A stretch of 64,000 nucleotides of DNA, taken from IMG/VR virus record IMGVR_UViG_2883068021_000001, positions 1-64,000 of that record; one strand, written 5' to 3'. Shown here one piece after another: positions 26,826-55,531 of this stretch (positions within the stretch are counted from its first letter, which is position 1; each line of letters begins with the position of its first letter). This stretch comes from a virus (taxonomy: Duplodnaviria > Caudoviricetes). The notes under the pieces were generated by a model, which was given only the letters and a program-made list of their open reading frames with translations, did no database searches and was not told where the DNA came from. The translations under genes were made by a program, and so were the position numbers.

Positions 26826-27166
26826 GGCTTATCCTTTTCCAGTGTCTGAATCTCCCGGTTGATGTACCAGATCGCTTTCTGCAGATCCTCGACATGCTTC
26901 GCAGGATCTTTACGCCCGGCACGGCACAGGTACTTCACCGCATTGCCGATGCGGTAATTGAACCCCTGGTCTTCGATGAAGTCGATGACTTCAATGGCGC
27001 CGGCCGTATAATGACCGGGGCGGTTGACGAAGTCATTTTCCGGGCTACACTGTTTTCCCTGCGCGTCTCTTTGCGCAGCGCGTTCAATGGCGCGCTGAAG
27101 ATTCTCTAACCCCGTATCTTTAAAAAATATTTTCATGTCAATCCTTTTTATAAAATGAAGTTTCAA
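26822..27166 (-). CDS. DUF3310 domain protein
   Basis: VNRPGHY...IEVIDFI...GNAVKYL.RAGRK...EDLQKAIWY. Confidence 0.88.
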   Translation of the reverse strand: MKLHFIKRIDMKIFFKDTGLENLQRAIERAAQRDAQGKQCSPENDFVNRPGHYTAGAIEVIDFIEDQGFNYRIGNAVKYLCRAGRKDPAKHVEDLQKAIWYINREIQTLEKDKP

Positions 27167-29087
27167 AGCTCTCCGCTTTCAGCGGCAGTCCGGGCGCCCA
27201 GTCGATGGGCATGCCCATAATTTCGTTTACTTTCTCCGTGGAGCTGGCAGTGTCGGGAACCTCCAGCACGACCTCATCATGAACGTGCATTACGATCCGG
27301 TACCCGGCGTCCGATAGCCGCAGCATAGCTACGGCGAGGCAGTCGCGGGCTACGGCCTGCACGATGTTCTCGACCAGCTTGCCGCCATAGGTCTCCTGCA
27401 TGCCCCACTTCTTTGTGGTCTGATCCATCCCCTCGTAAGCGAGCACGGTACCACCGTACTTTCCCGGGCGAAGCTGCGGGTGTACATACGCCAGGCGCCG
27501 GCCACTGGGCAGCTGGATGAAAAGGATATTGCGTTCCATACGGAGGACGATGCCATGACTGATGGTTACAGGCTGGCCGAACTCAACAGCCTCGATCGCG
27601 GCGTTCCCCACACAGTCCCAGTACCGCACGATCGCCTTATTGGCCTGGCGCCACATAGCCACCAGCCGTGGCAGCTCTTCCTCGACAATGCCCATTTTCA
27701 GTGCTCCCATCTTGATAAGCGCGTTCGGCCCTCCCTGGTAGCCCAGCGCCAACTCGGACACTTTTCCCTTCTGGCGCAGGTCGGAGCCCTTCGTAACACT
27801 CTCCAGCGGCACGCCGAACATCTGGGCGGCGGAGGCCTCGTAAATTTTCCCGTGGGTGGCAAAAACGCCCAGCCGCCACTTCTCCCCTGCCAGCCATGCG
27901 ATAACGCGCGCTTCGATGGCGGAGAAATCGGCTACCAGCAGTTTGTGGCCTTTCGGCGCGATAAAGGCGGTGCGGATAAGTTGCGAAAGCGCGTCCGGCA
28001 CGTTCCCGAAAAGCAGCTCCAACCCGCCAAGGTTATCTTGTCGCACCATCTCGCGGGCCAGCTCCAGATCGGACATTTCGTTACGCGGCAGGTTATGCAC
28101 CTGCACCAGGCGCCCGGCCCACCGACCCGTTCGGTTCGCCCCACCGAACTGCAGCAGCCCCCGCACGCGGCGGTCAGCGCACACGCATGCTGCGATAGCC
28201 TTGTACTTTTTCACAGATGTCTTTGCCATTTCCTGCCGAATCTGCAGCACGCGCTGCACGGCTTCTTTATCGGTCGCCTGCAGCAGAGCGGGGATATCAT
28301 CCTTACGGAGGGTTTCCACTTCGCTGTCCATCTCCTTCCCTAACCAGTCTTTGAGCTGGGTGGCGCTGTTGGGATTATCGAGCCCCGTGATCCGCACCGC
28401 CTCCTCGGTCAGCGTCTCTTTGTAGGCAAGATCCTGCCGGATGGCGTTGCGCACCAGCAGGGTGTCCACCAGGATCCCGTTGTCGTTGATGTACTGGTCC
28501 AGTTGCCAGAGGCGGCGTTCCTGATCGGGGATCTGGAAAGCAGACAGCTTGCCGCGGATTGCCAGCTCGACGCGAACGTCCTGCAGGTTGTAAGACTTGT
28601 ATTTTTCCCACCGCTCAGGGTCGTGCTCCGGGAGGTTACGGGTGCGGCCACCATTGGTTTTGGTCGGTTTGCAGGGTAGCGAGAAGTAGCGGATAAGCGC
28701 TTTGCCGGCCGCGTCTTTCTCTGCATCCAGCTTCAACGCTTTTGCTGCAGCATCCAGCGATAGCGGCAGGCCGAGCATGGCGACCTTCACCATTGTACAC
28801 TCCCACTGCTCCGGCGGCATTGGCAGGCCGAAATATTTGGCCATACATGTGCGTTCGAAAACCGCGTTATGGGCGGTTTTCAGCACCGCAGGTGAGGTAA
28901 GCGCATCAAGGATGTCGACTGGCAGCGTGTCGCCTGCCAGCAGATCAACGCACATAGGTTCGCCGCCATCGATGGCGTAGGAAAGCAGCAGGATCTCAAA
29001 GTCCAGAGCCTCCACGTACTTGTGAACGCCTGACTTTGTCAGATCGGTAGAGGAAAAGGTTTCTATATCTATGGCCAGCGTACGCAT
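27138..29087 (-). CDS. Family A DNA polymerase (APSE-like) with 3'-5' exonuclease
   Basis: Exonuclease motifs IDIET and AHNAVFE; motif A ADFSAIEAR, motif B RQKGKVSELALGY, motif C VHDE. Confidence 0.96.
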   Translation of the reverse strand: MRTLAIDIETFSSTDLTKSGVHKYVEALDFEILLLSYAIDGGEPMCVDLLAGDTLPVDILDALTSPAVLKTAHNAVFERTCMAKYFGLPMPPEQWECTMVKVAMLGLPLSLDAAAKALKLDAEKDAAGKALIRYFSLPCKPTKTNGGRTRNLPEHDPERWEKYKSYNLQDVRVELAIRGKLSAFQIPDQERRLWQLDQYINDNGILVDTLLVRNAIRQDLAYKETLTEEAVRITGLDNPNSATQLKDWLGKEMDSEVETLRKDDIPALLQATDKEAVQRVLQIRQEMAKTSVKKYKAIAACVCADRRVRGLLQFGGANRTGRWAGRLVQVHNLPRNEMSDLELAREMVRQDNLGGLELLFGNVPDALSQLIRTAFIAPKGHKLLVADFSAIEARVIAWLAGEKWRLGVFATHGKIYEASAAQMFGVPLESVTKGSDLRQKGKVSELALGYQGGPNALIKMGALKMGIVEEELPRLVAMWRQANKAIVRYWDCVGNAAIEAVEFGQPVTISHGIVLRMERNILFIQLPSGRRLAYVHPQLRPGKYGGTVLAYEGMDQTTKKWGMQETYGGKLVENIVQAVARDCLAVAMLRLSDAGYRIVMHVHDEVVLEVPDTASSTEKVNEIMGMPIDWAPGLPLKAESFETSFYKKD

Positions 29088-36018: not shown

Positions 36019-36045
36019 AAGGGTTCGAATCCCTTCTCCTCCGCA
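36019..36045 (+). other. tRNA 3' fragment (T-arm plus acceptor 3' strand; probably tRNA-Ser), att site
   Basis: AAGGG-TTCGAAT-CCCTT CTCCTCC G CA; no D or anticodon arm upstream. Ser identity is inferred from the acceptor and discriminator only. Confidence 0.75.
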
Positions 36046-36087
36046 AGCTTTAAATGCTCATTGACTTCGGTCTTTGGGCATTTTTTG
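36029..36087 (+). repeat. Left 59-bp direct repeat of integrative element 1 (includes a UUCG-loop terminator)
   Basis: Identical to 49359-49417. Confidence 0.95.
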
Positions 36088-36202
36088 TTTTGGGGGAGTT
36101 GCAACCCTTTCCTGTATTAACTTCTACAGGTTTTACAGATATAGAATTAAGTAAAAAAGTTATGTGGGCGAACTGAAGAAACAACCTGTTTTTTATAACA
36201 GA

Positions 36203-36302: not shown

Positions 36303-37580
36303 ATGCCTTCCTGGAAGGAGCGTAAAAACTTCTACATGGAAAGCAATAGAATCTTCGTCAGTTTCTTTCTCTACAAATCCAGGCAGACGCAAAAGGGAGG
36401 CATTCCCATCTTTGCCAGGATCACCCATGAAGGGAAAAGGCTCAACCACAATACAGGCTTATTCATCGAAGAAAAATCATGGGATGCGAAGAAGTACCAG
36501 GTAAAAGGCAACAAGCCTGAAGCCCAGGAAATGAATAAACTTTTAGCATCCCTCAGAACTAAAATCCTCTCCATTTACAATTCTCTGCTGGAGCAGGAAA
36601 CACCCATTTCCCTCGATCTGATAAAACACAGATTGGCTGGTGCTGATATTGAAAGGAAAACCCTACTGGAAGCCCTAACCTACCACAATGACCTTCTGGC
36701 AAAGGGAACAGGGATCAAGAACGCCAAAGCCACCAATACGAAATACAAGACTTTGGAGCGCAAGGTCAGGAGCTATATCATCCATCAGTATAAACGAAAG
36801 GATATTTTCCTGAAGGAGCTGAATCATCAGTTTGTAGTGAATTTTGAGATTTACCTCAAAACAGTGGAGTTGATTAGCCACAACCCCACCATCAAATATA
36901 TCCAGTTCCTGAAAAAGATCACCAACATGGCCATTGCTCATGGCTGGCTGGATAATAATCCTTTCAGGAATTTTAAATGCTCCTTAAAGCTCGTGGAAAG
37001 AGGATTTCTCACCCTGGATGAACTTCAGAAACTGGAGAATAAAATTATTCCCAATCTCAGGCTGGCCAGGATTAAGGATATTTTTCTTTTCTCCTGCTAC
37101 ACTGGGTTGGCCTATGCAGATGTGAAGCAACTGAAGCCCTCACACATCATCATTGGGGTTGATGGTGGGAAATGGGTGAACACCTTCAGGCAAAAGACCA
37201 ATGTGCGCACTAGCCTACCCCTCCTACCCCAAGCATTGGCTATTCTTGAAAAGTACCTGGAGTTGCATTCCCTGGAGGGAAAAAGGGATTTCATCTTCCC
37301 TATCCCCAGCAATCAGAAGGTAAATGCATATCTGAAGGAGATTGGGGATTTGTGCGAAATATCCAGGAAACTGACATTCCACCTAGCCAGGCATACCTTT
37401 TCTACGACAATTACACTGAGTAATGGGGTGCCTATTGAAAGTGTGTCGAAGATGTTGGGGCATACCAATTTGAAGACTACTCAGATTTATGCGAAAGTGG
37501 TGGATTCGAAGATTAGCCAGGATATGCAGGCATTAAGGGTGAAATTATCTGATAACTTAAACACATCTACCAATGGATAA
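36303..37580 (+). CDS. Tyrosine integrase (Bacteroidota type)
   Basis: Arm-binding IPIFARIT; FSCYTGLAYAD, HLARHTF, LGHTN and TQIYA catalytic motifs. Confidence 0.95.
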   Translation: MPSWKERKNFYMESNRIFVSFFLYKSRQTQKGGIPIFARITHEGKRLNHNTGLFIEEKSWDAKKYQVKGNKPEAQEMNKLLASLRTKILSIYNSLLEQETPISLDLIKHRLAGADIERKTLLEALTYHNDLLAKGTGIKNAKATNTKYKTLERKVRSYIIHQYKRKDIFLKELNHQFVVNFEIYLKTVELISHNPTIKYIQFLKKITNMAIAHGWLDNNPFRNFKCSLKLVERGFLTLDELQKLENKIIPNLRLARIKDIFLFSCYTGLAYADVKQLKPSHIIIGVDGGKWVNTFRQKTNVRTSLPLLPQALAILEKYLELHSLEGKRDFIFPIPSNQKVNAYLKEIGDLCEISRKLTFHLARHTFSTTITLSNGVPIESVSKMLGHTNLKTTQIYAKVVDSKISQDMQALRVKLSDNLNTSTNG

Positions 37581-37810: not shown

Positions 37811-38551
37811 ATGCAACACCCCCTACAATACTTTAAAGACCTTATCCTAAGAAACCATATAGCCAAAGAACGAATGAAATTTTTGCTGGGTGCTGAATTC
37901 GCCCCAGTTTTAAATAGGGATTTCCAAAATGATACGATCGAGTATGCATCTACGAATGCAGTTGACGAAAACTCCCAAGCCAATGTTGAAAAAATATCTT
38001 TTACTCAGATTCTGGAAGAAAGGGTTGCAGGAGGGATGATTAATGCACTTGATCTCATTGACAATGCTATCCTGGGAATAGATGATGAAAAGAAGCAAAT
38101 CCTCTACCTAAAAACTATCTATAAAACCCTTAATCCCCTTATTCTTTATGCAGAGCGATTGGACTATGTGAATAAATACATTTTTATCGCCAATTGTCTT
38201 AAAGATTTGAAAGCAGAACTTATAGATAAATACAATGTTCCTGATGATACTGAAGCACCCAAAAAATTAAACCTATCCTCGTCCCCCCAATCTTCCCACA
38301 AATTACAATGGATGGGGAAATCCAAAGTCCTTATAACCTTGTTTTATGACTTATATTCAAATGTTGAGAATGGAGGGGAGCCATTGATCAAGGCCACAAA
38401 AGAGCAAATAAAAAATTTCCTCCTCAATAATTTCATTGAAAAAGATGGGCAACCACTCAGCCCTTCATCAATTGATACACTTTTAACCCCTAGCAAAGAA
38501 GATAAAAGAGCCTTAAAAGGAGATAGAATTAATACTTCAAAGCTGAAATAA
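37811..38551 (+). CDS. Hypothetical protein with RteC-like C-terminal HTH
   Basis: KLQWMGKSKVLITLFYDL resembles the RteC-type KL.WTG.K..L.EL motif. Confidence 0.5.
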   Translation: MQHPLQYFKDLILRNHIAKERMKFLLGAEFAPVLNRDFQNDTIEYASTNAVDENSQANVEKISFTQILEERVAGGMINALDLIDNAILGIDDEKKQILYLKTIYKTLNPLILYAERLDYVNKYIFIANCLKDLKAELIDKYNVPDDTEAPKKLNLSSSPQSSHKLQWMGKSKVLITLFYDLYSNVENGGEPLIKATKEQIKNFLLNNFIEKDGQPLSPSSIDTLLTPSKEDKRALKGDRINTSKLK

Positions 38552-38622: not shown

Positions 38623-38759
38623 AGGACATAATCCAATTTGGCACCTTTGAATCGAACAAAACAACAAGATATGATTCAAAGGAACAAGCCACCGCCCTTA
38701 TGTTATATAAAATAGGAAGAAATAACTCAAATCACTTAAAACAATTTAAAATATACCAC

Positions 38760-39074
38760 ATGCGATTCAAAATAAATGCTGCTAAGGATGAAGCAATCTC
38801 TCAAATATCAGAATCAGATATCATCATTTTAAATGAGTATACAGGGGAGTATCAAACAGCCGATTTTGACTATATATTCTTACTGATGGATGATACCAAA
38901 ATCAGTCATTGTACTGTTTTAATTCCAGAAACTGTGCTTGTATACATTTTGAAGGAGTTGGCTAGTAATGGGCATAGGAACAATATCTATTTCGACAACG
39001 CCATATCATCAGAGAAATATTCATTTGGAGGAGTGATATATCACTATGCACATATTGAAAGGAAAGTTGCCTAA
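38760..39074 (+). CDS. Hypothetical protein
   Basis: Likely start MRFKINAAK at 38760. Confidence 0.6.
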   Translation: MRFKINAAKDEAISQISESDIIILNEYTGEYQTADFDYIFLLMDDTKISHCTVLIPETVLVYILKELASNGHRNNIYFDNAISSEKYSFGGVIYHYAHIERKVA

Positions 39075-39242: not shown

Positions 39243-40775
39243 CTATATTGCCATTTTTAGCTTGTTCTCAATCCAGTACTCTCGCTTAAAATGAGGTGTA
39301 AATCCAAGACATTTACCAAACTCTTCTTTCATTACATTCTCTACATACTCTTCATATCCTTTCAATGTTACGACAGAATCATGGAGTGTAAAAATTGGCA
39401 GATATGATTTTTCCTGAGCAATTCTTGCAACTACACGATGATACATGATGTAGCTTTCAATCCTTTGCAGCAGGATAGGTAAATTTTCAGCTTTCGCTCT
39501 TTTGATGGATGCTGTGATCTCATATATTTGGGGAAATATATCTCTGAAAATTCTTTTAGGTGCAGCTTCTTCTTGTCCAATGAATCTGTTATCTGTAAAC
39601 AGCACAGTGAATAGCATGGGTTTTACTTCATCATTTGTCTTAAAATCAAATCCTAGCTTATCTTTTAGCAGATGACGAAATTCAGAATAAAAATTTCCAC
39701 TACTAACCATTCGATAATAATTCCACATTTCATCCCCCTCCATTATTCTATTATTCTGGGCATTTTTGCACAGAGTAATGGTATTGGATAAGTGTTTGTG
39801 GTTGGCGAATATTGGAGTAATGAATAAGTAAGGAATATCTGAAGAATTCAATTTTCCTCCCTTCGCTTCATTCGTCCAGAATCCATCGTCTAACAGCAAA
39901 GTAAGCAAAGTAGGCTGGCTGTTTGACAAATCTATAGAAACTAATTCTTCGCCATCGTAGGTAACAGCATTTCTTATTTCTCTTTTACAGGAAGTCAGTG
40001 CAGAATGATACCTGAATACATTTTGGTCAAAATGTGCGTTAAATAAACCTCTCCTTATCTTCTCAATATTCAAATGGGTACCAAGATACTGTGTATAGGG
40101 GTTTTTCCACTCAATCCCTCTACCACTAATAGTTTTATCCCATTTCGATCTGTCTTTTTTCTTTTGTAAATATATTTCTGCATTGTACGCATGTGCCAGC
40201 TTATCATTAATATTCAAGCCACCAGCTTTATACCATCTTTCTATTGGAGTGTATTTACTGCCAATAGAAGATAGATCAAATTGGCTAGCTGTAGAGGCAT
40301 TAACTGGCTCCTTTTTTTCAATCGCCATTCCACTACTGTAAGTAACATTATTGAAAATTTGAGGCTCCTTTGTGCCCTTATTGGGCTGTTTAATGCCTTC
40401 CATCTTTTTGAGCAGAATAGAATTGGTAATAGGAATTGATTTAAGTGATTGCTGGTATCTTTCGCAAAATCTATATCCTTTTGATTTTACGCCAACAATA
40501 AACTGGTCATCTGTTTCAATAATACCAGCTTCCAGTAGGTAGGTTAAATAGTCAGAATATCCTTTGCCAATCCATTGTTTCAGGATTTCAGCATTAATAG
40601 GTACATAACCTTCCTCGTCTGTTAAATCTTTGTTTCTGGAGGGGATTTCTGCAAGAAGGTGTAAAATGTAGAGTAGCTTATCTCTATTAAAACCATCTAT
40701 GTGGCTGATTGAATTTTTCCTGATAATATCATCTATATCTATGTTCTCTGGAATGTAAAAAAGCTGTTGTTCCAT
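39243..40775 (-). CDS. Family-A-polymerase-fold protein with N-terminal wHTH and no exonuclease domain
   Basis: In order: FRYHSALTS, LVSIDLSNSQP (motif A), EVKPMLFTVLF (B-like), LLQRIES, FTLHDSV (motif C). Confidence 0.65.
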   Translation of the reverse strand: MEQQLFYIPENIDIDDIIRKNSISHIDGFNRDKLLYILHLLAEIPSRNKDLTDEEGYVPINAEILKQWIGKGYSDYLTYLLEAGIIETDDQFIVGVKSKGYRFCERYQQSLKSIPITNSILLKKMEGIKQPNKGTKEPQIFNNVTYSSGMAIEKKEPVNASTASQFDLSSIGSKYTPIERWYKAGGLNINDKLAHAYNAEIYLQKKKDRSKWDKTISGRGIEWKNPYTQYLGTHLNIEKIRRGLFNAHFDQNVFRYHSALTSCKREIRNAVTYDGEELVSIDLSNSQPTLLTLLLDDGFWTNEAKGGKLNSSDIPYLFITPIFANHKHLSNTITLCKNAQNNRIMEGDEMWNYYRMVSSGNFYSEFRHLLKDKLGFDFKTNDEVKPMLFTVLFTDNRFIGQEEAAPKRIFRDIFPQIYEITASIKRAKAENLPILLQRIESYIMYHRVVARIAQEKSYLPIFTLHDSVVTLKGYEEYVENVMKEEFGKCLGFTPHFKREYWIENKLKMAI

Positions 40776-41239
40776 CTAAGAATAAATAATTTTCCATCAC
40801 CTGAATCCAGGCTGATTGCTCGTTTTGTAATTTTTCATATTTTATTTTTTTGTGAATTAATTTTTATATCACCTGACCAAAATATCCCAAGGAAACTTTG
40901 GCCATTTTAAAACTGAATTGTAAAATTATTATGGTTCGATTTATTTGCCAATAGCATTAAAAAAAATTATTGACACCAATTGAAAGTATCAATTTCAACA
41001 TCTTACAGAATCTACTTTCTGCACTGTTATCAGCTAATTTTAAGCAGCATTCTCTTTCCTATCTTCTCAATACTCTGGACTGGATTTTAAAATGCAAACA
41101 TGATTGAACGAACAGGGTATCAATAACAAACTGTTAACTTACAATTACATTATATTGTCGTGTATATTGAGTTGGCTTATCCACTTTTTAGGACTTTCTC
41201 TATTTTTCGAATAGTTGTGACACCAAAAATCTCTTACTT

Positions 41240-43531
41240 ATGATTAAAAGCATCAACAAAATCCATGGATTTCGCATATTTCAAGATTTCACAAGGTCTT
41301 CATCATTGTCAGACTTTTCAAAATATAATTTATTCTATGGTTGGAATGGAAGTGGGAAAAGCACATTTTCTAATCTGCTTCAGTATGTTGAAGAAAAATC
41401 TATTCCAGACGAACACCTGGATGCTAAATTTGAAATTGAATTAGCAGATAAGCAAAAGCTGACAAATGGGGCATCATTGTCAAGTAATTCATTGAAATTA
41501 AAAGTATTTAATAAATACTTCGTTGCAGAGAATATAAATTTTGAGGAACAAGGCGCCAAAAGCATTCTTTTGGTATCAAAAGAAAGGATTGAAGAAAAGG
41601 CAAAACTCAAAGAACTAAATAAAGAGAAAAAGAGTCTTGTTGACAGATTGCTGAATGCTGAAAATGGAGCCAGGGATAAAAGAAAAGTAAATGAGAAGTT
41701 CCTTTCAGATATTGCAAAAGGGATTAAAAATTCTTTTAAGGTCATTGACACAAAAGATACTTACTATTTTAACTATGATAGAAATAAACTATCAGCATTT
41801 ATCGATAGGCATAAACAACAAGTAAATGCAACTTCGATTCTTACTGATGCAGATCTAAGCAAAGTCATTATGGCAGTTAAGCCAGAGGTAAAAGAAATTA
41901 TTCCCCTGGAGTTTGAATTGCCTAATTCAAATAACTTAATTGAATTTGAAGCCAGGTTGAATCTAGTTTTACAAACCAATATTGTGTCTAATCAAATAGA
42001 GCAATTAGTTAATGACGAACTACTCAATAGATGGGTAGAAGAGGGCTTGAAATTGCATTCAAAAATAGGTAGTGAAGTTTGTGGATATTGTGGAAATGCA
42101 ATAGCAAAAGAGAGAATTAATGCACTAAATGCACATTTTAGTGCAGACTATATTTCATTAAAAACAAAAATAGAAGATGGCATTAAATTCATTGAAAGTA
42201 TAAAACAGGGATTTCACCTTTCAGTGCCACTGGAAGATCACTTATATGATGAATATAAGGAAGGATACAAAGATGCAGTTAATGAATTTAAGAGCGTCCT
42301 TATAGAAATTGATACTAAGTTGAAATATTGGTCTGACACCATGAATACTAAACTTGGAAATCCATTTGAAATACTATCTCTAGATACACAAAATACAACT
42401 TCTATTTTTACTGCATTTAGTAGTAGCGTAAATAAGGTGATCTCTGTCCTCGAATTATGCAATAGCAAAACTGATAATTATTCAAAAATACTTAAAGAAA
42501 GCCAAGAAAAGCTGGAGCTACACTATGTCAGCGAAGCACTTTCTAACAATGAATATTTTAGAAGCTTGATTGAAATCGAAGAGCTGGACAAAGAATCCAA
42601 TGAAGTGCGACAACAACTAAATGTGATAGCCAAGGAAATATTAGAATTAGAAAAGGTATTAGTCAATGCTGTTATGGGCGCTGAACAATTTAATGAGAAC
42701 CTATATAAGTTTCTGGGAAGAAATGATATTTTGTTAGAATATATTGCAGATGAAGGTGGATATAAAATTATCAGGTCAGGAAAAAAAGAATTGGCAAAGC
42801 ATTTGAGTGAGGGCGAAAGAACAGCCATTGCGTTTGTCTATTTCATATCAAAATTACAGGAGATGGAGATAGCTGATTTGCAGGAGTCAATTATTGTTTT
42901 GGATGATCCTATTTCAAGCTTTGATAGCAATCATCTGTTCAATGCAGCTCATTTCATTAAAGAAGAGTTCTTTTCAGAAAAAGACATGCCAAGTAAGATT
43001 GGACAGCTCTTTATTCTTACACATAATTTCAATTTTTTCTCCCTTATCAATGAATGGTTTGAGGCAAAGGATTTAAAAAAAGTGTTCTGCATAAAGAACA
43101 TTAATCATAATGGTAGTAGAGCTGCGATATTTGAAGATGCTGAATATGTTTTAAAGCAATTTGGTTCTGAGTATCACTTTATTTTTTCAGAAATTAAGAA
43201 ATACAATGAATCGAACGACAAATCTTATTATCATACGCACACTATAGCTAATTTATGCAGACAGCTCTTAGAATCTTTTCTAACTTTCAAGTTTGGTCGA
43301 AAGAAACTGGATAAATGCTTTGACGAAATAGTGGGATTCAGCGAACTTGCAAAAGTTAGAAAATTTGTAAATCATTATTCGCATAGAGCAGATCATGGAA
43401 CCAGCATAAGGGGATATAATGACAATCTTTTTGGCGAGACTGAAAAACTAGTTCCAATTGTACTAGAGTTGGTAAAATATGTGGATAATGTTCATTATAC
43501 CTCCATGTTGGCAAGAATAAATGGGAATTGA
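41240..43531 (+). CDS. rloC: RloC-family anticodon nuclease (ABC ATPase, zinc hook, HEPN)
   Basis: GWNGSGKS, CGYCG hook inside a coiled coil, LSEGE, LDDPISSFD, THN, and HEPN RQLLESF...RKFVNHYSH. Confidence 0.85.
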   Translation: MIKSINKIHGFRIFQDFTRSSSLSDFSKYNLFYGWNGSGKSTFSNLLQYVEEKSIPDEHLDAKFEIELADKQKLTNGASLSSNSLKLKVFNKYFVAENINFEEQGAKSILLVSKERIEEKAKLKELNKEKKSLVDRLLNAENGARDKRKVNEKFLSDIAKGIKNSFKVIDTKDTYYFNYDRNKLSAFIDRHKQQVNATSILTDADLSKVIMAVKPEVKEIIPLEFELPNSNNLIEFEARLNLVLQTNIVSNQIEQLVNDELLNRWVEEGLKLHSKIGSEVCGYCGNAIAKERINALNAHFSADYISLKTKIEDGIKFIESIKQGFHLSVPLEDHLYDEYKEGYKDAVNEFKSVLIEIDTKLKYWSDTMNTKLGNPFEILSLDTQNTTSIFTAFSSSVNKVISVLELCNSKTDNYSKILKESQEKLELHYVSEALSNNEYFRSLIEIEELDKESNEVRQQLNVIAKEILELEKVLVNAVMGAEQFNENLYKFLGRNDILLEYIADEGGYKIIRSGKKELAKHLSEGERTAIAFVYFISKLQEMEIADLQESIIVLDDPISSFDSNHLFNAAHFIKEEFFSEKDMPSKIGQLFILTHNFNFFSLINEWFEAKDLKKVFCIKNINHNGSRAAIFEDAEYVLKQFGSEYHFIFSEIKKYNESNDKSYYHTHTIANLCRQLLESFLTFKFGRKKLDKCFDEIVGFSELAKVRKFVNHYSHRADHGTSIRGYNDNLFGETEKLVPIVLELVKYVDNVHYTSMLARINGN

Positions 43532-43763: not shown

Positions 43764-44267
43764 TTATTTTAATTTTAATATAAGTACAACTATTGCCAAT
43801 GTGGAAATGATGACAATTGAGAATACTACCAAAGTACCCTGATTATTATTATTCTCGTTAGAAGATTTGAATATCTCATCATCAAAATTAATCTTGCTGG
43901 TATCAGAAGTATTATATATACCAGTTGGTGCTATAGGAGTGGTGGCTGGATTAGAACTTGCATGAGGGCCATTGCCTGGCTCCAGACTTTCAATAAGTTG
44001 ATCCAATTCAGTTTTTTCTTTCGAGGTAGAATAGTCTTGTATTGTTGGCCCTGTATTACTTCTCTCAATTGAGGCTTTAATTTTTTCTAAATCATCCTTG
44101 TTTTTCTCCAAGGTCATTGGGTCTAAAGCATCAACAGGTTGTTGAGAATAAGCTGATGAATTTAAACAAAGAAAAAGTAGACCAAATAGAGTGAAACTTT
44201 TCATAATATGTGGTTTTGAAGTAAAAATACCTGTTTTGCAGTAAATAACGCAAATTTGCTCTAACAA
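43764..44267 (-). CDS. Exported protein with C-terminal TM anchor
   Basis: The likely start MKSFTLFGLLFLCLNSSAYS-Q is a signal peptide; hydrophobic C-terminus. Confidence 0.65.
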   Translation of the reverse strand: MLEQICVIYCKTGIFTSKPHIMKSFTLFGLLFLCLNSSAYSQQPVDALDPMTLEKNKDDLEKIKASIERSNTGPTIQDYSTSKEKTELDQLIESLEPGNGPHASSNPATTPIAPTGIYNTSDTSKINFDDEIFKSSNENNNNQGTLVVFSIVIISTLAIVVLILKLK

Positions 44268-44541: not shown

Positions 44542-45726
44542 CTATATTTTCTGTAAAATATCTGGAGGACACATTTCGTAACCTGCACTTTGCCAAATGA
44601 TATGGAACAATGATTCCATTGCCTTATAATAATCTTGTTTGAAATCTTGAATGACAACTATTGGGAACAATAGACTTTCCTTTTTGAAGCCTTTTTTATG
44701 ATTCCAAAGTCCAGAAATTGGCATCCCTTTTATGTTATTAAATGCTAAAGAAATACAATATGGGGATTCTATCGATGCTGTGATGTAGAACTCTATTGTC
44801 TGCTTTACTTGCTGCAAAACTTCAGCTGCTAAATTCTCTCCAGATAGAAAATACTTATTACTAGCATCCTGCATATATATTCCTGTTGTAAAAACCTCAA
44901 TGCAGCCATCTCTAAATATTGAATTATACGAATACATATCAGAATATGGGTTTGTATGGATAACAAAACCCTCAAAAGTATGATTATAGCTGTAGCCACT
45001 TGACATGATTGGAGGTAATTTTCTAATCATATTCTCATGAAATGAGCTAGGCAAAAAATCCAAAGAAGTATAGCCCATTTTTGACAAAGGAATAATATGA
45101 AGTATCATATTGGGAATATCAACAATAGCATCCCAAAAAGGGTTTGTCTGTATTGATTTTATCCTATCCTGAATAAACTGTTTGGCCCTATCTCTCATTT
45201 CCATGTTCTTTATGAATAAATTATACAACTCATGGGTATCCAACAAATACTTGCCAGTATTCCTTCTCCTGTAGAATTTACTTGAGTTCTTAAAACTTAT
45301 TCTGGTAGGTAACGATAAATTTTTAGGAATTGATATTGCAAAAACATTGCAGCCATTTACAGGTATTAAACTACTAAAAGACAAATGACTTAATTGGGGA
45401 TCTGTATTATTCTTAACAATTTCCTCAATTTGAGATATGACTTTATCATAATTGTCTATGGCCACTCTATTGCCACTAGGCAATTGGGGGATTCCTGTAC
45501 TTTGATTTAATTCATCTTTCTCATCCTCCAATCCAAATATTATAATACCACCTTCTGTATTATGAAATGCTGTTATATCAGCCAGCAATTCTGATCTATC
45601 ACCATCATCTTTGAGTTTAAAGTCCCTTTTATAATCCAGGGTTATTGATTCAGGAACTCTTCGTTCAATCAAGGACAAAATGTCCTCATTAGAGAGTTCT
45701 ACAACACTCTTTCCACTAAGTCGCAT
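44542..45726 (-). CDS. AlbA_2/Schlafen-domain protein
   Basis: VPESITLDYKRD...LLADITAFHNTEGGIIIFGLED...FYRRRNTGK. Confidence 0.85.
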   Translation of the reverse strand: MRLSGKSVVELSNEDILSLIERRVPESITLDYKRDFKLKDDGDRSELLADITAFHNTEGGIIIFGLEDEKDELNQSTGIPQLPSGNRVAIDNYDKVISQIEEIVKNNTDPQLSHLSFSSLIPVNGCNVFAISIPKNLSLPTRISFKNSSKFYRRRNTGKYLLDTHELYNLFIKNMEMRDRAKQFIQDRIKSIQTNPFWDAIVDIPNMILHIIPLSKMGYTSLDFLPSSFHENMIRKLPPIMSSGYSYNHTFEGFVIHTNPYSDMYSYNSIFRDGCIEVFTTGIYMQDASNKYFLSGENLAAEVLQQVKQTIEFYITASIESPYCISLAFNNIKGMPISGLWNHKKGFKKESLLFPIVVIQDFKQDYYKAMESLFHIIWQSAGYEMCPPDILQKI

Positions 45727-46635: not shown

Positions 46636-46929
46636 ATGGTTACTATTAAGAATTTTAAAGTGCATGCTGATGCACAGGGGAAATCATTTGTCTCCCTGGA
46701 GCTGATAGGTGATATTGAAATGATCCAATCCAAACAATCAGGGAGATTTTACGCTACAGTCAGGAAATGCTTTATTTCTTCAACTTTTGATGAAACCACA
46801 GCCAGGCTGATGGTTGGAAAATCCATCGAAGGAAACATTGTAAAACAGGAATGTGAACCCTACGACTTTATTATGCACGAAACTGGGGAAGCAGTAAAGC
46901 TGACCCATCAATATGCATATGTACCTTAA
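46636..46929 (+). CDS. Conserved Bacteroidota element protein
   Basis: 97 aa, FVSLEL.GDIEMIQS..GRFYAT..K..ISSTFDE; first gene of the rightward cluster. Confidence 0.7.
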   Translation: MVTIKNFKVHADAQGKSFVSLELIGDIEMIQSKQSGRFYATVRKCFISSTFDETTARLMVGKSIEGNIVKQECEPYDFIMHETGEAVKLTHQYAYVP

Positions 46930-47024
46930 TCACATAATCCCATCCAATTAATTCATTCACCCAATCAGATGAAGGGCAGGACTACAAAGGTTTTGCCCTT
47001 TTTCTTTTCCTAAAAGTTCAAAAA

Positions 47025-48008
47025 ATGGAACAAGCTATTTTGCAAACTCCCTCTCACCAGGGAACTTATATTGATTTTGAGGAAACTTCTACCTCCAAAC
47101 CTTTCCTACAAGCCAATACAGAGGAATTTCCTCTGGCACACATCAGGAAAGACCACACAATCCCCTGTTTCGCGAAGGACAATGAGCCTTTAATCAGCCA
47201 TTATGATTTTATCGAACTGACCTCCCAGGTAGCAGTAGAAGTATTTTCCCAGGAATCCATTTTAAGCCCTTCCATCAGGCTAAGCCATCCTATTAAAGGC
47301 AGAATCCCTGAAGCCAAAGAAAAGGCAGCAAAAGACCTATTGGATCACGAAAAGACCCTGTATTTCGAAAGGATGGCTTTTATCATTGAAATCCCCAGCA
47401 TCTCAGATTCCATCGAAGGGAATAACCTCACCCTTACCCTGGGAGGAGTAAAAGCCTACAACCTGGAGAACTTATACACCAAGAAAGGTGCTGATGAGCA
47501 TTTCAAGGTATTTATTGGGTTCCAGAATAAGGTTTGCACAAACTTATGTGTAAGGACTGATGGCTATATGGCAGATTTGAAGGTGAAGAATATGGCGCAG
47601 CTCAAAAATGCTATATACTCTCTGTTCAGCCAATACAATGCATCCCAGCACATTCAAAAACTCAGGAATTTCACCAACTATGATATTTCTGAGCAGCAGT
47701 TTGTCCACCTCATTGGGAAATGTAAGTTGTTCAATTATCTGCCTCCTGCCATGAAAGCAGGCATTTCCCCTCTTCTGTTTGGTGACACCCAGCTCAGCAC
47801 TGTTTGCAGGGATTATTACAGGGACGATAGCTTTTGTAGAAATGAGGATGGTAGCATCAACCTCTGGAGGTTATATAACCTATTCACTGGAGCCAATAAA
47901 AGTTCCTACATCGACACATTCCTGGACAGATCACTGAATGCCTTCCAGTTTACTGAGGAAATCAGGCGAGCCCTGGACAACCACCAATCCAGTTGGTTCC
48001 TGACCTAA
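47025..48008 (+). CDS. DUF3871-family protein
   Basis: PFLQANTEE...IPCFAKDNE..ISH.DFI...FIGFQNKVCTNLCV...INLWRLYNLFTGANKSSYID. Confidence 0.85.
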   Translation: MEQAILQTPSHQGTYIDFEETSTSKPFLQANTEEFPLAHIRKDHTIPCFAKDNEPLISHYDFIELTSQVAVEVFSQESILSPSIRLSHPIKGRIPEAKEKAAKDLLDHEKTLYFERMAFIIEIPSISDSIEGNNLTLTLGGVKAYNLENLYTKKGADEHFKVFIGFQNKVCTNLCVRTDGYMADLKVKNMAQLKNAIYSLFSQYNASQHIQKLRNFTNYDISEQQFVHLIGKCKLFNYLPPAMKAGISPLLFGDTQLSTVCRDYYRDDSFCRNEDGSINLWRLYNLFTGANKSSYIDTFLDRSLNAFQFTEEIRRALDNHQSSWFLT

Positions 48009-48456: not shown

Positions 48457-48975
48457 ATGGCAGAAGATCAATTAGCCAAATTCCAGGATTTCTGCAAAGC
48501 AGCCATCCTGGCAGATCAAACTTATCTTGTAAACAGTTTCCTGCTGAGTAATGATGAATCCCTCCACTCCTTCATCCACAACCCACTTGTGTATGATGTG
48601 CTGATAGATGGCCATGTCCATAGAGGAACCTGCCTCCTGGTAAAAGACCTCCTGATGCGCAAGGACAGGGAAATTTCCATTCTCCAGAAAGAAATCCTCC
48701 ACACCCTGGACGATGAAAAAGTCAAACAACTCCAGGACAGGGTTGAAAAAGTCAAACTGGAAAGGGAAGTCCTCGACAAAGCAGCCCCCAAGGAAAGGTA
48801 CATTTACGAATGGCTCCTGGTGCCTCACTGGATGGGGGATGAACTGATTCTCTTGGGAGAGGTAGTTTTCAGGGGTTATGGCTGCAACTTTTGGGGTACA
48901 ACCTCCATCCTGAGGGAAAATTACAGGAAGGAAGATACCCTCCTGGGCATTTTCGAGGAATTGCATAATCATTAA
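48457..48975 (+). CDS. Hypothetical protein (phage-like C-terminus)
   Basis: YIYEWLLVPHW....L...GEVVF......FWG pattern seen in phage/MGE proteins. Confidence 0.65.
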   Translation: MAEDQLAKFQDFCKAAILADQTYLVNSFLLSNDESLHSFIHNPLVYDVLIDGHVHRGTCLLVKDLLMRKDREISILQKEILHTLDDEKVKQLQDRVEKVKLEREVLDKAAPKERYIYEWLLVPHWMGDELILLGEVVFRGYGCNFWGTTSILRENYRKEDTLLGIFEELHNH

Positions 48976-48985
48976 TACTAATATC

Positions 48986-49231
48986 ATGGATCTTCCTGAA
49001 GAACCCAACAGCATGAGCATGCTCGAAAATTTGCATAAGCACTTCGATAATGCAGGTAAAGCCTTTAAAGACAGGGTTTGCCTGGACTGTGATTTCTCAA
49101 ATGCCACCTATTACAGGAAAGTATCTACCTCCAAATATGCCACTATCACCAGGGCAGAAAGGGACAGAATACTGGAGATAGCAGAATATATCGTAGGCAA
49201 GCTCAATGACTGTATCAGCCTCTATAAGTAA
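48986..49231 (+). CDS. Hypothetical HTH-like protein
   Basis: 81 aa, FKDRVCLDCDFSNATYYRKV. Confidence 0.6.
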   Translation: MDLPEEPNSMSMLENLHKHFDNAGKAFKDRVCLDCDFSNATYYRKVSTSKYATITRAERDRILEIAEYIVGKLNDCISLYK

Positions 49232-49358
49232 CAAAAAAGCAGTAATTTGACTGCATCTTCAAACCAGCTCCTTTCACTGGAAGGTATGGCCTAAGGTATC
49301 AAAAATGTATTATGATCGTAGAATCAAGCACTGTTAAGGCTTTCCAGGATGGGTTTTC

Positions 49359-49417
49359 ATCCCTTCTCCTCCGCAAGCTTTAAATGCTCATTGACTTCGG
49401 TCTTTGGGCATTTTTTG
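49359..49417 (+). repeat. Right 59-bp direct repeat (attR) of element 1
   Basis: Identical to 36029-36087; the T-loop upstream is degenerate (GGGTTTTCAT). Confidence 0.95.
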
Positions 49418-49601
49418 GTTTTTAGCGCTTCCGCAACGGCCAATCGTATTACCGCTCACCTGCCCGCCCAAAAACAGGAATGCCCTACCAGGGATCGCCT
49501 ACCTCGGATCCCCCTTTATCATTCCGGCATTAATCCATACAATTCGTACCTCAACATACTTTGTTGTATATTGAGTTTCCAAACATCCATAAACAATACC
49601 T

Positions 49602-51671: not shown

Positions 51672-52586
51672 TCACATATCCGCTCCTTCCCGCTGCAGGA
51701 GCCAATTTCCCAGTTCCATGACATCCTTCGGCCGCGCGCCGGGGTCGATCATGCGGGCCGCTGCGGCACAGATGTCCGCCGGCGACATTCCCTGTTCGCG
51801 CATGAACCGGATGGAGGTATCTCCTACGGATTTGGAGAGTTTGTGGCCCGAGGGGCTTTCCAGCAGGGGGTGATGCCAGAAAACGGTCTGCGCGAACGGG
51901 TTGGGCGGCAACAGGGACGCGAGATAGAGTTGACCGAGGGTCGAAGGCAAAAGATCTTCGCCCCTCACTACCAGGTTTACCCCGAATTGAAGATCGTCTG
52001 CCACGGAAGCCAGCTGGTAGGCGGGCTCTCCGTTTTTCTTGCGTACCACGAAGTCGTACATGGAAGGCGGTAAGCGCATGGGCGGGGGCTTCATCCCGAT
52101 GGATTGCATGGGAATGATCGCGTCCGGGTCGGTGAAGATCCGCCAGGCCACGCCAGGTTGATCGAGCGGTATATTTTTATGGCGGCAGGTACCGGGATAG
52201 TTTCCGTCTACCAGTTGCGTACGCGAGCAATCGCAGGCGAAGAGGTGGCCTTCAGCGCGAAGGTTATCCAGGAATTCGGCGTAGCGCGCCATCCGCAGGG
52301 ATTGCGACCAATTGCCGGTGAAATCGTCCGGATCGCGGGGGCCCTGGTGCCAGGGGATGTGCATATGATGAAGGGTATCGAATATGTCCTGGAGGTACGC
52401 GGGGCGGAGGCGGTCGCGGTCGAGGTCGTCGATACGGAGGAGGACCTTGGCCTGGAAGCGGTCTGCAAGTGCGATGGTGGCGGCAAACGACAGCAGGTTG
52501 CCCACATGCAGGAAACCGCTGGGCGTGGGGGCCAGTCGGGTGAGGCGGGGTGCCTGGGCTGTGGGAGAATGCTCGTTTTGCGACAT
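51672..52586 (-). CDS. gluQ: Glutamyl-queuosine tRNA(Asp) synthetase
   Basis: RLAPTPSGFLHVGN, CDCSR...Y..TC zinc site, YQLASVADD, KLSKS; 304 aa with no anticodon-binding domain. Confidence 0.85.
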   Translation of the reverse strand: MSQNEHSPTAQAPRLTRLAPTPSGFLHVGNLLSFAATIALADRFQAKVLLRIDDLDRDRLRPAYLQDIFDTLHHMHIPWHQGPRDPDDFTGNWSQSLRMARYAEFLDNLRAEGHLFACDCSRTQLVDGNYPGTCRHKNIPLDQPGVAWRIFTDPDAIIPMQSIGMKPPPMRLPPSMYDFVVRKKNGEPAYQLASVADDLQFGVNLVVRGEDLLPSTLGQLYLASLLPPNPFAQTVFWHHPLLESPSGHKLSKSVGDTSIRFMREQGMSPADICAAAARMIDPGARPKDVMELGNWLLQREGADM

Positions 52587-52598
52587 CGTAAAAAATGA

Positions 52599-52631
52599 TT
52601 TGTAAAATTACGGGACTTGTCGCTATATTTG
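52599..52631 (+). promoter_or_regulatory. Bacteroidota sigma-A promoter of tRNA-Asp
   Basis: -33 TTTG at 52599 and -7 TATATTTG at 52624, 21 nt apart. Confidence 0.75.
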
Positions 52632-52649
52632 CAACCCGGTTAACGGAAT

Positions 52650-52723
52650 GGATCGGTAGTTCAGTCGGTTAGAATGCCGCCCTGTCACGGCGGAGGTCGC
52701 GGGTTCGAGTCCCGTCCGGTCCG
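52650..52723 (+). tRNA. tRNA-Asp(GTC)
   Basis: Full cloverleaf: GGATCGG/CCGGTCC acceptor, CCGCC-CTGTCAC-GGCGG anticodon arm, GGGTTCGAGTCCC T-arm; CCA not encoded. Confidence 0.97.
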
Positions 52724-52738
52724 CACGATTTAGAAGAG

Positions 52739-52762: not shown

Positions 52763-53101
52763 GTTTTTAGTCGAGTATTTGGTCGAGTTCCCTTTTGTTT
52801 TCAATGATCTTTACGGAGGTTAACATACTTTAAGTTACGAAAAGTGACTTAAAAAGATGGGCGATTCAGTTTTCTCGTAAAAAAAACATGATCGCCCTCA
52901 ATCGCAGCTTAATCAAAAAAATCTTGATTAAACGACTATTCGAAATTGGGAATTTAGTTCATGAGTATGCTTAGTTAATAGCCTTAATTATTTTGAGCAT
53001 AGCAAGAAATTTACGCGATAACACATAATGGAATTACTTATGTATATTTGAGTGTTAAGCGCATTTAAAACCGGTTATCCGACAAAATTGAACTTATACC
53101 C

Positions 53102-54652
53102 ATGACTAAAGTTTTAGACCTCAATTATACAGAAGCAAGGCAATATTTTCTAAAGAGAGAAAGCTATATCAACTTTGATCTTCCTACTTATTTTGAATTT
53201 GGAAACCTATTGCAGGCTGTTTCAACACATATGCGAGGCCGGGAACTTAAAACTTTTCACTCTACTTATGTTGATGAAGATGGAGAAATTAAGCCTCATT
53301 TTCCAGCAAATTTTGAAGGAGTAAATTATAAGTTTCTTAATAACAAAGATGGGAAATTTGCATGGCGCCCTTTTCAATTGATTCATCCAGCCCTGTATGT
53401 TTCATTAGTTAATAAAATTACTGAACAGGCAAACTGGAATCTAATTGTAGCTCGATTCAATCAATTTCAGGCAAATCCTCAAATCAGATGTTATAGCATT
53501 CCATTACGTTCAGATAATCAACAATCAGATAAAGCAACTACAATTAGTCAGTGGTGGCAAGCAATTGAACAGCAATCGTTGGAGCTGGCATTGAAGTTTG
53601 AATATGTTTTGCATACTGATATTTCTGATTGTTATGGATCAATGTATACTCATTCTGTTCCATGGGCAATACATACAAAAGCAACCGCCAAGGACCGTAG
53701 AAAAGACAAAGGGTTGGTCGGCAATATTATCGATAGACACTTACAGAGTATGTCCTATGGGCAGACCAATGGAATTCCACAAGGGAGCGTATTGATGGAT
53801 TTTATCGCTGAAATGGTTCTTGGTTTTGCCGATCTAGAACTGTCTACCAAAATTCAACAAGCAAACATTCAAGATTATGAAATAATAAGGTATCGAGATG
53901 ATTATCGAATTTTTTCGAACAATCCACAAACTGCTGAACATATTACCAAGTTACTGACGGAGATTTTGATTGAGCTTGGAATGCGTTTGAACGCACAGAA
54001 AACAATCGTATCAAATAACGTCATAAAGAACTCAATAAAATCGGATAAATTATACTGGATTTCATCAAAGAAGGGTGCGAAAGGTATTCAAGAACATTTA
54101 TTGATTATTCATAAGCTTTCGGAAGAACATCCAAATTCGGGCAGTTTATCGAAAGCATTAGGCAAATTCTATAACAGAATTAAAGATGTAACTGAAACTC
54201 ATCAAAGCATAATTGTTTTAGTTAGCATTTTGGTAGACATAATGTATAAAAACCCAAGAGTTTATCCAATTGCTTCTGCGGTTCTAAGCAAACTCTTGTC
54301 GCTCGTTCCCGACCATAAAAAGAATGAAATACTAATTCTAATTCACAATAGATTCGAAAAGATACCCAATACAGGGCATATTAAAATTTGGCTTCAAAGG
54401 GTTACTATTAAACTTGATAGAGAAAAAGTATACTCTGAAAAACTTTGCGAAAAAATAAATAATCCTAGGTTGCAGATTTGGAATTCTGACTGGATAGAGA
54501 ATAACTTAAGAACTGTTATTGAAGCTACTGAAATTATAGATGAAGATGTAATCAATAACATAGATGTAGTCATTTCTAGTAAAGAAATTGAATTGTTTAA
54601 AACTGAATATGACTATGCTGAGCAGACTGAAGAAGTGGAGGTGACTTTGTAA
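53102..54652 (+). CDS. Abi-P2-like reverse transcriptase
   Basis: NNKDGKFAWRPFQLIHP, WWQAIEQQSL, TDISDCYGSMYTHS, GIPQGS, catalytic YRDD and a helical C-terminal extension. Confidence 0.88.
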   Translation: MTKVLDLNYTEARQYFLKRESYINFDLPTYFEFGNLLQAVSTHMRGRELKTFHSTYVDEDGEIKPHFPANFEGVNYKFLNNKDGKFAWRPFQLIHPALYVSLVNKITEQANWNLIVARFNQFQANPQIRCYSIPLRSDNQQSDKATTISQWWQAIEQQSLELALKFEYVLHTDISDCYGSMYTHSVPWAIHTKATAKDRRKDKGLVGNIIDRHLQSMSYGQTNGIPQGSVLMDFIAEMVLGFADLELSTKIQQANIQDYEIIRYRDDYRIFSNNPQTAEHITKLLTEILIELGMRLNAQKTIVSNNVIKNSIKSDKLYWISSKKGAKGIQEHLLIIHKLSEEHPNSGSLSKALGKFYNRIKDVTETHQSIIVLVSILVDIMYKNPRVYPIASAVLSKLLSLVPDHKKNEILILIHNRFEKIPNTGHIKIWLQRVTIKLDREKVYSEKLCEKINNPRLQIWNSDWIENNLRTVIEATEIIDEDVINNIDVVISSKEIELFKTEYDYAEQTEEVEVTL

Positions 54653-54808
54653 TTTTGGCGGATAGAATACTGATCAGCGTGCATTATAAATAAATGCAAG
54701 TATTAGTTTCAATTTTCTATTGAAAATACAATAGAAACGCGATTTAAGGGCTTTGGGTAAAGGCGATTAATTGTTTTTTTAGTAATTTGATAGAAATCAA
54801 ATTAAGAT

Positions 54809-55531
54809 ATGCAATTGTTTCCTTTTCATAGATTGAAATCATTCATCTTATTTGAACAGCCTTTTAATTTTCAATACTTGACCCTTCACTTCCGTCGAAC
54901 CCATGAAAAGCATCAGGAGCATTTTGATAGCTGGCCGATAGCTGCGACGCGACGGAAATTAATCAACGACTTTTGGTTTTGGGCCTTGTGCCATTATGCA
55001 GCTTTGGTGGCCATTTGCGGAATAGTATTCCTGGGCGTACTGGCCACCTTTAATATATCTTATCTCTTGCTGGTACTAGTCGTAGGTATTTTACTTTACT
55101 TACCCTTATATGTTCTTTTATATCGTCCAGCTTTTACCGGTGATTTTCTCCCGAAACTGGAAACTGTAATATCCGAGTTCGAAGGGAATCAGCGAATTTG
55201 GGCCGAAAAGTGCAAACAAGAGCAACTTTCCACGCGGGGGCTTGTATTGCTTTACTACATTTTGGATAAATGTGCTGAAATTAACTTTCTTACCCCAAGT
55301 GATAAATCTGCAAGCCTGCTGCTTAAAATCTTCGGTGTAAGCCAGAAGGGCCTAAAGAACGAACTCGATTTACTATTCAAGAAGGAAAAGCGGGCAAAGA
55401 TTGAGCAAAGAAAGCAAACCGAGATTACGAAGAGTTTCGAGGAAGTGTACGCTATTTTTGAGGAAATGCAGTTTCCAAAGGGTGTGCAAATGTTAAAAGA
55501 GCTGGAAATCCGATATAATCGGCCCGAATAA
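54809..55531 (+). CDS. Conserved element membrane protein (2 TM plus cytoplasmic domain)
   Basis: Hydrophobic residues ~55-105; lies upstream of the excisionase-like gene. Confidence 0.6.
   Translation: MQLFPFHRLKSFILFEQPFNFQYLTLHFRRTHEKHQEHFDSWPIAATRRKLINDFWFWALCHYAALVAICGIVFLGVLATFNISYLLLVLVVGILLYLPLYVLLYRPAFTGDFLPKLETVISEFEGNQRIWAEKCKQEQLSTRGLVLLYYILDKCAEINFLTPSDKSASLLLKIFGVSQKGLKNELDLLFKKEKRAKIEQRKQTEITKSFEEVYAIFEEMQFPKGVQMLKELEIRYNRPE

Follow-up and report, generated by a model that had tools for sequence, protein, structure and literature searches.

What does a compact polymerase, encoded in the middle of a small integrated island, do for that island? The question is raised by a 64,000-nucleotide stretch of a record classed as Caudoviricetes (IMG/VR record IMGVR_UViG_2883068021_000001, positions 1 to 64,000), which we refer to below as the window. 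The gene concerned is the following:

39243..40775, minus strand: polymerase gene, 510 residues; winged helix (1-129), then a disordered linker (130-163), then the minimal polymerase domain of family A type (about 164-510)

An original prediction, made from the letters of the window, described this open reading frame (ORF) as carrying a set of motifs in the order found in PolA. All of the quoted strings are present in the translation in that order (FRYHSALTS, LVSIDLSNSQP, EVKPMLFTVLF, FRDIFPQI, LLQRIES and FTLHDSV), although the prediction did not state that the gene lies on the minus strand. On the basis of its modelled structure, we identify the protein as a minimal polymerase of the family A (Pol I/T7) superfamily, in which a thumb-palm-fingers core of approximately 345 residues is fused to a winged helix. 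The gene sits on a 13.3-kb island of low GC content at the 3′ end of a tRNA-Ser gene. Our assessment, which falls somewhat on the favourable side of even, is that the enzyme is the origin-targeted primase-polymerase of the island and starts replication of the excised form. The concept is not new: it matches a prediction made in 2008 for the polymerases known as TV-Pols (PMC2579912).

A Pfam search with the 510-residue protein gave no matches even at an E value of 10, and DNA_pol_A (PF00476) was therefore not among them. Searches of NCBIfam, PADLOC and the PDB sequences also gave no matches, and a profile built from 37 relatives recovered no PolA from the PDB sequences. The sole match in a family library was to phrog_4756, an uncharacterised phage family, and this match is partial, covering the C-terminal 90 residues (E 2.7e-8). 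A word-indexed search identified 183 relatives, whose names are absent or "hypothetical" with the exception of one UniRef entry named "DNA-directed RNA polymerase"; the neighbouring cluster in the ESM Atlas is automatically named "DNA-directed DNA polymerase family A palm domain-containing". An exhaustive HMMER search with the polymerase found 3866 cluster representatives at E ≤0.001, with 524 at E ≤1e-30. This is thus a polymerase family that has no Pfam, NCBIfam or PADLOC model despite its 3866 cluster representatives, and whose public names conflict as to whether it makes RNA or DNA. The dN/dS ratio of the gene is 0.12 relative to the copy in Chitinophaga barathri and 0.10 relative to that in C. 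terrae, the two closest Chitinophaga copies.

The structure of the protein was predicted using AlphaFold2, from a 37-sequence alignment. The model has a mean pLDDT (predicted local distance difference test) of 87.7 and a pTM (predicted template modelling score) of 0.87. Residues 1-129 are modelled as a winged helix, residues 130-163 as a disordered segment that varies in length, and residues 164-510 as the catalytic thumb-palm-fingers. The N-terminal domain (model residues 10-116) resembles the winged helices of LexA, TubR, ORC/Cdc6 and RepA type, with Z scores of 5.3-5.9.

The model was then compared, using VIA-align, with 48,161 representative solved chains. The best 21 are without exception family A DNA polymerases or T7-type RNA polymerases (RNAPs), and the top match has a Z score of 15.1 and a root-mean-square deviation of 4.3 over 270 aligned residues. 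This match is to the apicoplast Pol (Z 15.1); Pol nu (14.6), Aquifex Pol I (14.5), T7 DNA polymerase (14.0) and Klenow (13.7) score only slightly lower, and the RNAPs lower again, with yeast mitochondrial RNAP at 12.3, T7 RNAP at 9.7 and N4 RNAPII at 8.9 (the N4 RNAPs span 7.4-8.9). The alignments with RNAPs reach into the N-terminus of the model, yet with lower Z. Unrelated palm domains rank below the family A/T7 set, at Z ≤6, with Abi-P2 at 6.0. In the Klenow alignment, model residues 163-504 lie on Klenow 519-927, so that Klenow aligns only from its residue 519; the proposal of a winged helix-turn-helix N-terminus and no 3′-5′ exonuclease domain is borne out by the model and by these matches. 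A Foldseek search of the PDB concurs (best E 9e-7). Against the BFVD viral models, the best Foldseek matches are phage proteins of 400-450 residues, some of them named DNA polymerase (E 1e-22, target TM 0.79), and T7-type RNAPs are absent from the 50 best. The VIA-align and Foldseek rankings therefore point to a compact thumb-palm-fingers polymerase without an exonuclease domain, nearer to the DNA polymerases.

Residue conservation was counted in 257 relatives. Two residues are invariant (K385 and E440, 257/257), and others are nearly so: R255, D282, Q287 and D466 (each 256/257), R268, Y363, Q437 and H465 (each 255/257), and P288 (253/257). They are followed by N285 and S467 (each 244/257), F389 (227/257), S286 (226/257) and an Arg at position 381 (205/257). 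Position 393 is Phe in 220 and Tyr in 37; the replacement of the motif-B Tyr by Phe, noted in the original prediction, is thus true both of the 510-residue protein and of most of the family. The palm-domain match and conserved Asp residues that had been put forward as a check on the polymerase assignment were both found, the latter in D282 and D466. Viral relatives retain the catalytic set, with D282, K385, H465-D466, R255 and R268 present in 22-25 of 26.

Several of these positions bear on the choice of substrate. The fifth position after the motif-A Asp is a Glu in DNA polymerases, where it forms the steric gate, and a Gly in T7 RNAP. From the spacing of the motifs, we take Q287 to occupy this site (Klenow E710, T7 RNAP Gly542). 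On the same grounds, F389 and F393 presumably correspond to Klenow F762 and Y766, where T7 RNAP has Y639, and Q437 to Klenow Q849 and T7 RNAP H784. An hhalign comparison of the family with the PolA encoded elsewhere in the window matched at motif A only and was not significant; this non-significant alignment sets motif A on DFSAIE and places Q287 opposite the steric-gate Glu. The C-terminal strand and tail of the polymerase also resemble those of the same PolA. Given that a Pfam-verified phage PolA adjoining one of the relatives reads HDG at motif C, the HDS of the present protein is not diagnostic of RNAPs, and its earlier reading as a T7 RNAP signature does not hold. The fold ranking and the other positions that discriminate tilt towards a DNA polymerase. 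From the Gln at the steric gate, the Phe at the Tyr639 site, the Gln at the His784 site and the C-terminal tail, we infer that the enzyme would favour deoxynucleoside triphosphates (dNTPs).

We then consider where the gene occurs. When prokaryotes were scanned with one genome for each species, relatives of the polymerase were recovered at 47 loci, all of them in Bacteroidota. Among 300 evenly drawn Bacteroidota genomes, 14 match the polymerase at E ≤1e-10, spread over 11 genera, or roughly 1 in 20 sampled species. In about 29 of the 47 loci, the integrase, an HTH_17 (excisionase-type) gene and the polymerase are contiguous and co-directional, and their stop and start codons often overlap. A tRNA gene lies approximately 250 bp outside the integrase in 23 of the loci, and in 17 of these it is a tRNA-Ser. 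The recurring module is therefore a tRNA, an integrase, an HTH_17 protein and the polymerase, followed by variable defence cargo, which according to the locus includes type I and III restriction-modification, Vsr with a cytosine methylase, RelA/SpoT, GmrSD, SIR2 and AAA_21. No recurrent nuclease gene lies beside the polymerase among loci with annotated neighbours. Wherever the second tRNA-end repeat could be located, the elements are 5.2-13.4 kb in size. The predicted linkage to tRNA-adjacent integrases thus stands, while the linkage to DUF3871 predicted alongside it does not, this family being found only in the window and in C. niabensis.

The Chitinophaga/Flavipsychrobacter clade departs from the common layout, in that it lacks the HTH_17 gene and its polymerase and integrase genes converge. 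The closest element to that of the window belongs to this group: it is the 5.2-kb element of C. barathri (locus L012), in which the polymerase is 79% identical and in which the integrase and the polymerase are accompanied only by homologues of the 167-, 172- and 81-residue proteins listed below. Because this element has no defence genes, those in the window are insertions into a minimal backbone. Four Bacteroidota genomes (G043, G203, G239 and G257) have polymerase copies that contain stop codons or fall into two matches, and decayed elements therefore coexist with intact ones.

Within the window, GC content drops from approximately 0.53 in the host to 0.32-0.44 between 34 and 50 kb. The limits of the island and its integrase are as follows:

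36021..36091, plus strand: left attachment repeat, the last 25 nt of tRNA-Ser(GGA) and a 46-nt terminator-like flank; also the right end of an upstream prophage
36303..37580, plus strand: tyrosine integrase, 425 residues, with Pfam Arm-DNA-bind_5, Phage_int_SAM_5 and Phage_integrase; homologues flank the polymerase in about 35 of the 47 loci
49351..49421, plus strand: right attachment repeat, with a degenerate T-loop (three changes) and then identical through the tRNA terminator flank

The two 71-nt direct repeats are 94% identical. Neither ARAGORN nor Rfam calls a tRNA at 36021, and the site is only a 3′ fragment; the intact tRNA-Ser(GGA) is on the same contig, 1.8 kb ahead of the start of the window (G000 contig 12, about 441800-441887). 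The order of genes on the island is integrase, two uncharacterised genes, polymerase (convergent with the integrase), AAA_13, Schlafen/AlbA_2, DUF3871, an HTH_3 protein and several small genes. Pfam scans detected no capsid, terminase, relaxase, helicase, nickase or Rep families on the island, on which seven ORFs match no family at all. Together with the module seen in the 47 loci, this agrees with the earlier description of the polymerase as the core gene of a tRNA-integrated island that has defence cargo and lacks capsid and relaxase genes.

Relatives of the polymerase also occur in viruses, in 25 IMG/VR loci and at 21-33% identity. In five phage contigs (L064, L071, L073, L074 and L081; 39-511 kb, three of them jumbo-sized), the relative is immediately upstream of a Pfam DNA_pol_A gene, so that each encodes two family A-type polymerases in tandem: a relative of 390-400 residues and a canonical PolA of 410-460 residues. 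In two of these five loci there is a DnaB helicase within 3-4 kb. A small viral contig (L060, 20 kb) pairs the relative with a serine resolvase, and another (L062) combines it with an integrase and defence genes. The protein downstream on the 20-kb contig (L060:13212-15992), 927 residues long, has a Hint (intein) domain and is otherwise unannotated.

We favour a role in the initiation of replication because the polymerase has a fixed place beside the recombination genes while the cargo varies, because the minimal element has no other candidate for replication, and because the phage relatives lie in replication modules. In such a scheme, the tyrosine integrase would excise the 13.3-kb island from the 3′ end of tRNA-Ser; the winged helix would guide the polymerase to a site on the circular island; the polymerase domain would prime DNA synthesis de novo, probably using dNTPs, and might or might not extend the product a short way; and the host replisome might then take over. 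The steps that we infer are the priming itself, the choice of substrate, binding to an origin and the replication of the excised island, and site recognition is probably supplied by the winged helix. The sequence in which such a site might be sought is the region upstream of the gene:

40776..41239, minus strand: DNA upstream of the polymerase gene, with a conserved block at 40946-40966; candidate promoter, operator or origin

The block is 21 nt long (TGCCAATAGCATT followed by an A-run), lies approximately 170-190 nt upstream of the polymerase start and is kept in the C. barathri and C. terrae elements, in which the DNA around it has diverged.

The closest precedent is provided by the TV-Pols, minimal family A-type polymerases of transposons and viruses for which Bacteroidetes are among the listed groups (Iyer, Abhiman and Aravind 2008, PMC2579912). 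A subset of them has an extra N-terminal domain, and their neighbours are resolvases, lambda-type integrases or transposases; they were predicted to be the primase-polymerases of integrase-bearing elements (PMC2579912). The island polymerase resembles them in its nuclease-free minimal core, in the Arg before the palm (R255), in the two catalytic Asp residues and in the RxxxK motif of the fingers (R381 and K385, conserved as given above). It also has a winged helix where the subset has its extra domain, and a mobile-element setting beside an integrase or, in the case of L060, a resolvase. It differs in that no D5-type helicase is linked or fused to it, and the layout of tRNA, integrase, HTH_17 gene and polymerase with defence cargo is not described in PMC2579912. 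By the defining features published for the TV-Pols the protein fits, and at the level of sequence it is a candidate member.

The only TV-Pol whose activity has been shown is the distant CcPol of SCCmec, which acts as a primase on dNTPs when paired with MP (Bebel et al. 2020, PMC7581432). CcPol alone merely extends primers, the OB-fold partner MP being required for priming, and the same study states that no TV-Pol besides CcPol has been characterised (PMC7581432). CcPol is annotated as a polymerase of the A family, and the follow-up study is confined to Bacillota (Rice 2023, PMC10061031); a reclassification of the family A polymerases published in 2023 makes no mention of TV-Pols or of Bacteroidota. 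Like CcPol, the island polymerase is an exonuclease-less family A polymerase from an integrative element. Unlike CcPol, which is encoded in an operon with MP and the Cch2 helicase, it has neither of these conserved beside it, the neighbours across the loci being the HTH_17 gene upstream and variable cargo downstream. Furthermore, CcPol retains the steric-gate Glu where the island family has Gln, and CcPol comes from Bacillota and carries the A-family annotation while the island polymerase has no Pfam match.

The original prediction also likened the element to a PolA counterpart of the pipolins. The likeness in lifestyle is real, since pipolins are integrative elements, often inserted at tRNAs and free of capsid genes, and have as their hallmark a gene for a self-priming DNA polymerase. 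It extends no further than lifestyle, piPolB being a family B enzyme with an unrelated catalytic-domain family, and the idea of such elements had already been published in 2008 under the name of TV-Pols (PMC2579912).

A number of observations weigh against the enzyme being a primase-polymerase of this kind. No conserved helicase or SSB-like (single-stranded DNA-binding) partner adjoins the gene in the 47 loci, and the MP-like OB-fold partner that CcPol needs for priming is not linked to it. Helicase fusions were not found, and none of the longer fused forms (894-2550 residues) scored, which is weak evidence. Repeat and word searches found no iterons or repeat array upstream of the gene, either here or in close relatives; the word TAAGGTC forms no array, with 3 scattered matches where chance predicts about 6. 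The Arg of the RxxxK motif is an Asn at position 381 of the 510-residue protein itself. At the level of sequence, similarity to Pfam DNA_pol_A, to the PDB sequences and to the presumed TV-Pol of Ma-LMM01 is not significant. For the last of these we took the 506-residue protein beside the transposases of Ma-LMM01 to be a phage TV-Pol; hhalign gave E values of 0.043 and 0.38 with the island family, the string LLQRIE being the sole likeness. A whole-record HMMER profile search of Ma-LMM01 was empty, and two rounds of building hidden Markov models with viral relatives missed the 506-residue candidate.

An alternative is a DNA polymerase that cannot prime, and which would extend a 3′ end made by another protein, for example in rolling-circle or strand-displacement copying or in the filling of gaps at recombination junctions. 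Such an enzyme would have the same fold and the same residues; it would behave as CcPol does on its own (PMC7581432), and it would account for the phage relatives, which accompany another PolA and do not replace it. We nevertheless think it distinctly unlikely: no nickase, relaxase or Rep protein was detected on the island to supply the 3′ end, the 5.2-kb minimal element has no other candidate for initiation, and a fused DNA-binding domain of sequence-specific type suits an initiator better than a gap filler. An even less probable explanation is a miniature single-subunit RNAP, whose winged helix would read a promoter of the element and which would either transcribe the island or make an RNA primer, as T7 and mitochondrial RNAPs can. 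It draws on the HDS at motif C and the D-x-x-x-S pattern at motif A, on the presence of the yeast mitochondrial, T7 and N4 RNAPs among the fold matches, and on the one UniRef name. The DNA polymerases outscore these RNAPs over the catalytic domain, however (Z 15.1-13.7). The named proteins among the 50 best viral models are DNA polymerases, the phage relatives are in replication modules, and HDS does not discriminate, given the HDG of a bona fide phage PolA. The near-invariant Gln287 replaces what is by general rule a Glu in DNA polymerases and a Gly in T7 RNAP, and 220 of 257 relatives have Phe at the Tyr639 site. T7-type RNAPs, including N4 RNAPII, share the superfamily fold (Z 7.4-12.3) and motif C, but the catalytic part of the island polymerase is about half as large, and it has Gln, Phe and Gln in place of Gly542, Tyr639 and His784, if the equivalences drawn from motif spacing are correct. 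Thus, where a replicase or primase and a mini RNAP had been proposed side by side, the former is now the better supported and the latter has become less likely.

The polymerase might instead belong to the cargo, as a defence or abortive-infection enzyme like AbiK, Abi-P2 or DRT. These islands are rich in defence genes, and Abi-P2 is a weak match to the fold at the level of the palm (Z 6.0). This is the least probable of the explanations, and very improbable in our view: the gene keeps a fixed position next to the integrase and HTH_17 gene while the cargo varies, there is no PADLOC match, and the phage relatives occur in replication modules. We therefore return to the origin-targeted primase-polymerase as our preferred explanation. 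It can be put in a bolder form, in which the winged helix and the 345-residue core together make up a one-protein starter that needs no helicase or SSB and combines origin recognition, priming and extension. It would then be the smallest self-sufficient primase-polymerase of family A or, failing that, a promoter-specific RNAP less than half the size of T7 RNAP; we offer this form tentatively and regard it as rather unlikely.

The polymerase and integrase form the fixed backbone of small islands that move anti-phage defence genes among soil, marine and gut Bacteroidota. The activity of the enzyme, once established, would show by what means these islands persist and spread in the absence of genes for conjugation or capsids. 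Establishing it would also test the 2008 primase-polymerase prediction for the integrase-linked branch of the TV-Pols, and would define a very compact family A polymerase of possible practical use.

The remaining features of the island are as follows:

37811..38551, plus strand: 246-residue protein, non-core; no Pfam, NCBIfam or PADLOC match and no homologue in the 47 loci
38700..39074, plus strand: 124-residue protein, non-core; no family match and no homologue in the 47 loci
41240..43531, plus strand: AAA_13 ABC-type ATPase, 763 residues, cargo, candidate single-gene defence system PDC-S06 (Pfam E 5.5e-132; PADLOC E 2.3e-155)
43764..44267, minus strand: 167-residue protein with hydrophobic N- and C-terminal stretches; homologue next to the polymerase in the closest element, L012 (E 7e-32)
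44542..45726, minus strand: Schlafen/AlbA_2 protein, 394 residues, cargo (Pfam SLFN_AlbA_2); a member of this family also comes after the polymerase gene in C. niabensis
47025..48008, plus strand: DUF3871 protein, 327 residues, clade-specific and outside the family-wide core (Pfam E 1.9e-115)
48457..49231, plus strand: two small genes (172 and 81 residues) located at the island's right end and conserved in Chitinophaga elements; homologues in L012 (E 2e-71 and 4e-11) and L006

Relative to the 5.2-kb element of C. barathri, the AAA_13 gene is inserted exactly between the 167-residue gene and the polymerase gene, and its position therefore marks an entry point for cargo into the backbone. A small gene directly precedes DUF3871 both here (the two together at 46636-48008), where it encodes 97 residues, and in C. 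niabensis, where it encodes 81. The 81-residue protein at the right end of the island was considered as a possible HTH_17 excisionase, but this is unsupported, HTH_17 not being detectable in it.

The prophage to the left of the island, approximately 37.8 kb in length, occupies the interval from the intact tRNA-Ser(GGA) to the island, and its part in the window is 1-36091. Its genes include those for a capsid, a portal, a VapE primase-helicase, an SNF2 helicase and its own Pfam PolA (27138-29087), the in-window PolA referred to above. Its integrase, of 418 residues, adjoins the tRNA and is unrelated to that of the island, and both have used the same tRNA 3′ end. A three-way alignment of the three tRNA-end junctions fits an order of events in which the island would have been inserted first, and the prophage later between the tRNA and the island. 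A helper-satellite pairing of the two was considered and rejected, since the integrases are unrelated and the arrangement accords with one insertion after another at a single tRNA hot spot. No Pfam families for helper packaging or capsid hijacking, of the type found in phage-inducible chromosomal islands (PICI) and P4-like satellites, were found on the island, its seven ORFs without a family match being the limit of that search.

A second tRNA, tRNA-Asp(GTC), lies within the window and adjoins a GluQ-tRNA synthetase-like gene (51672-52724). Directly past this tRNA, the GC content is 0.33-0.36 over a 516-residue ORF (53102-54652; region 53000-55000), and this drop suggests that there is a second island at tRNA-Asp(GTC).

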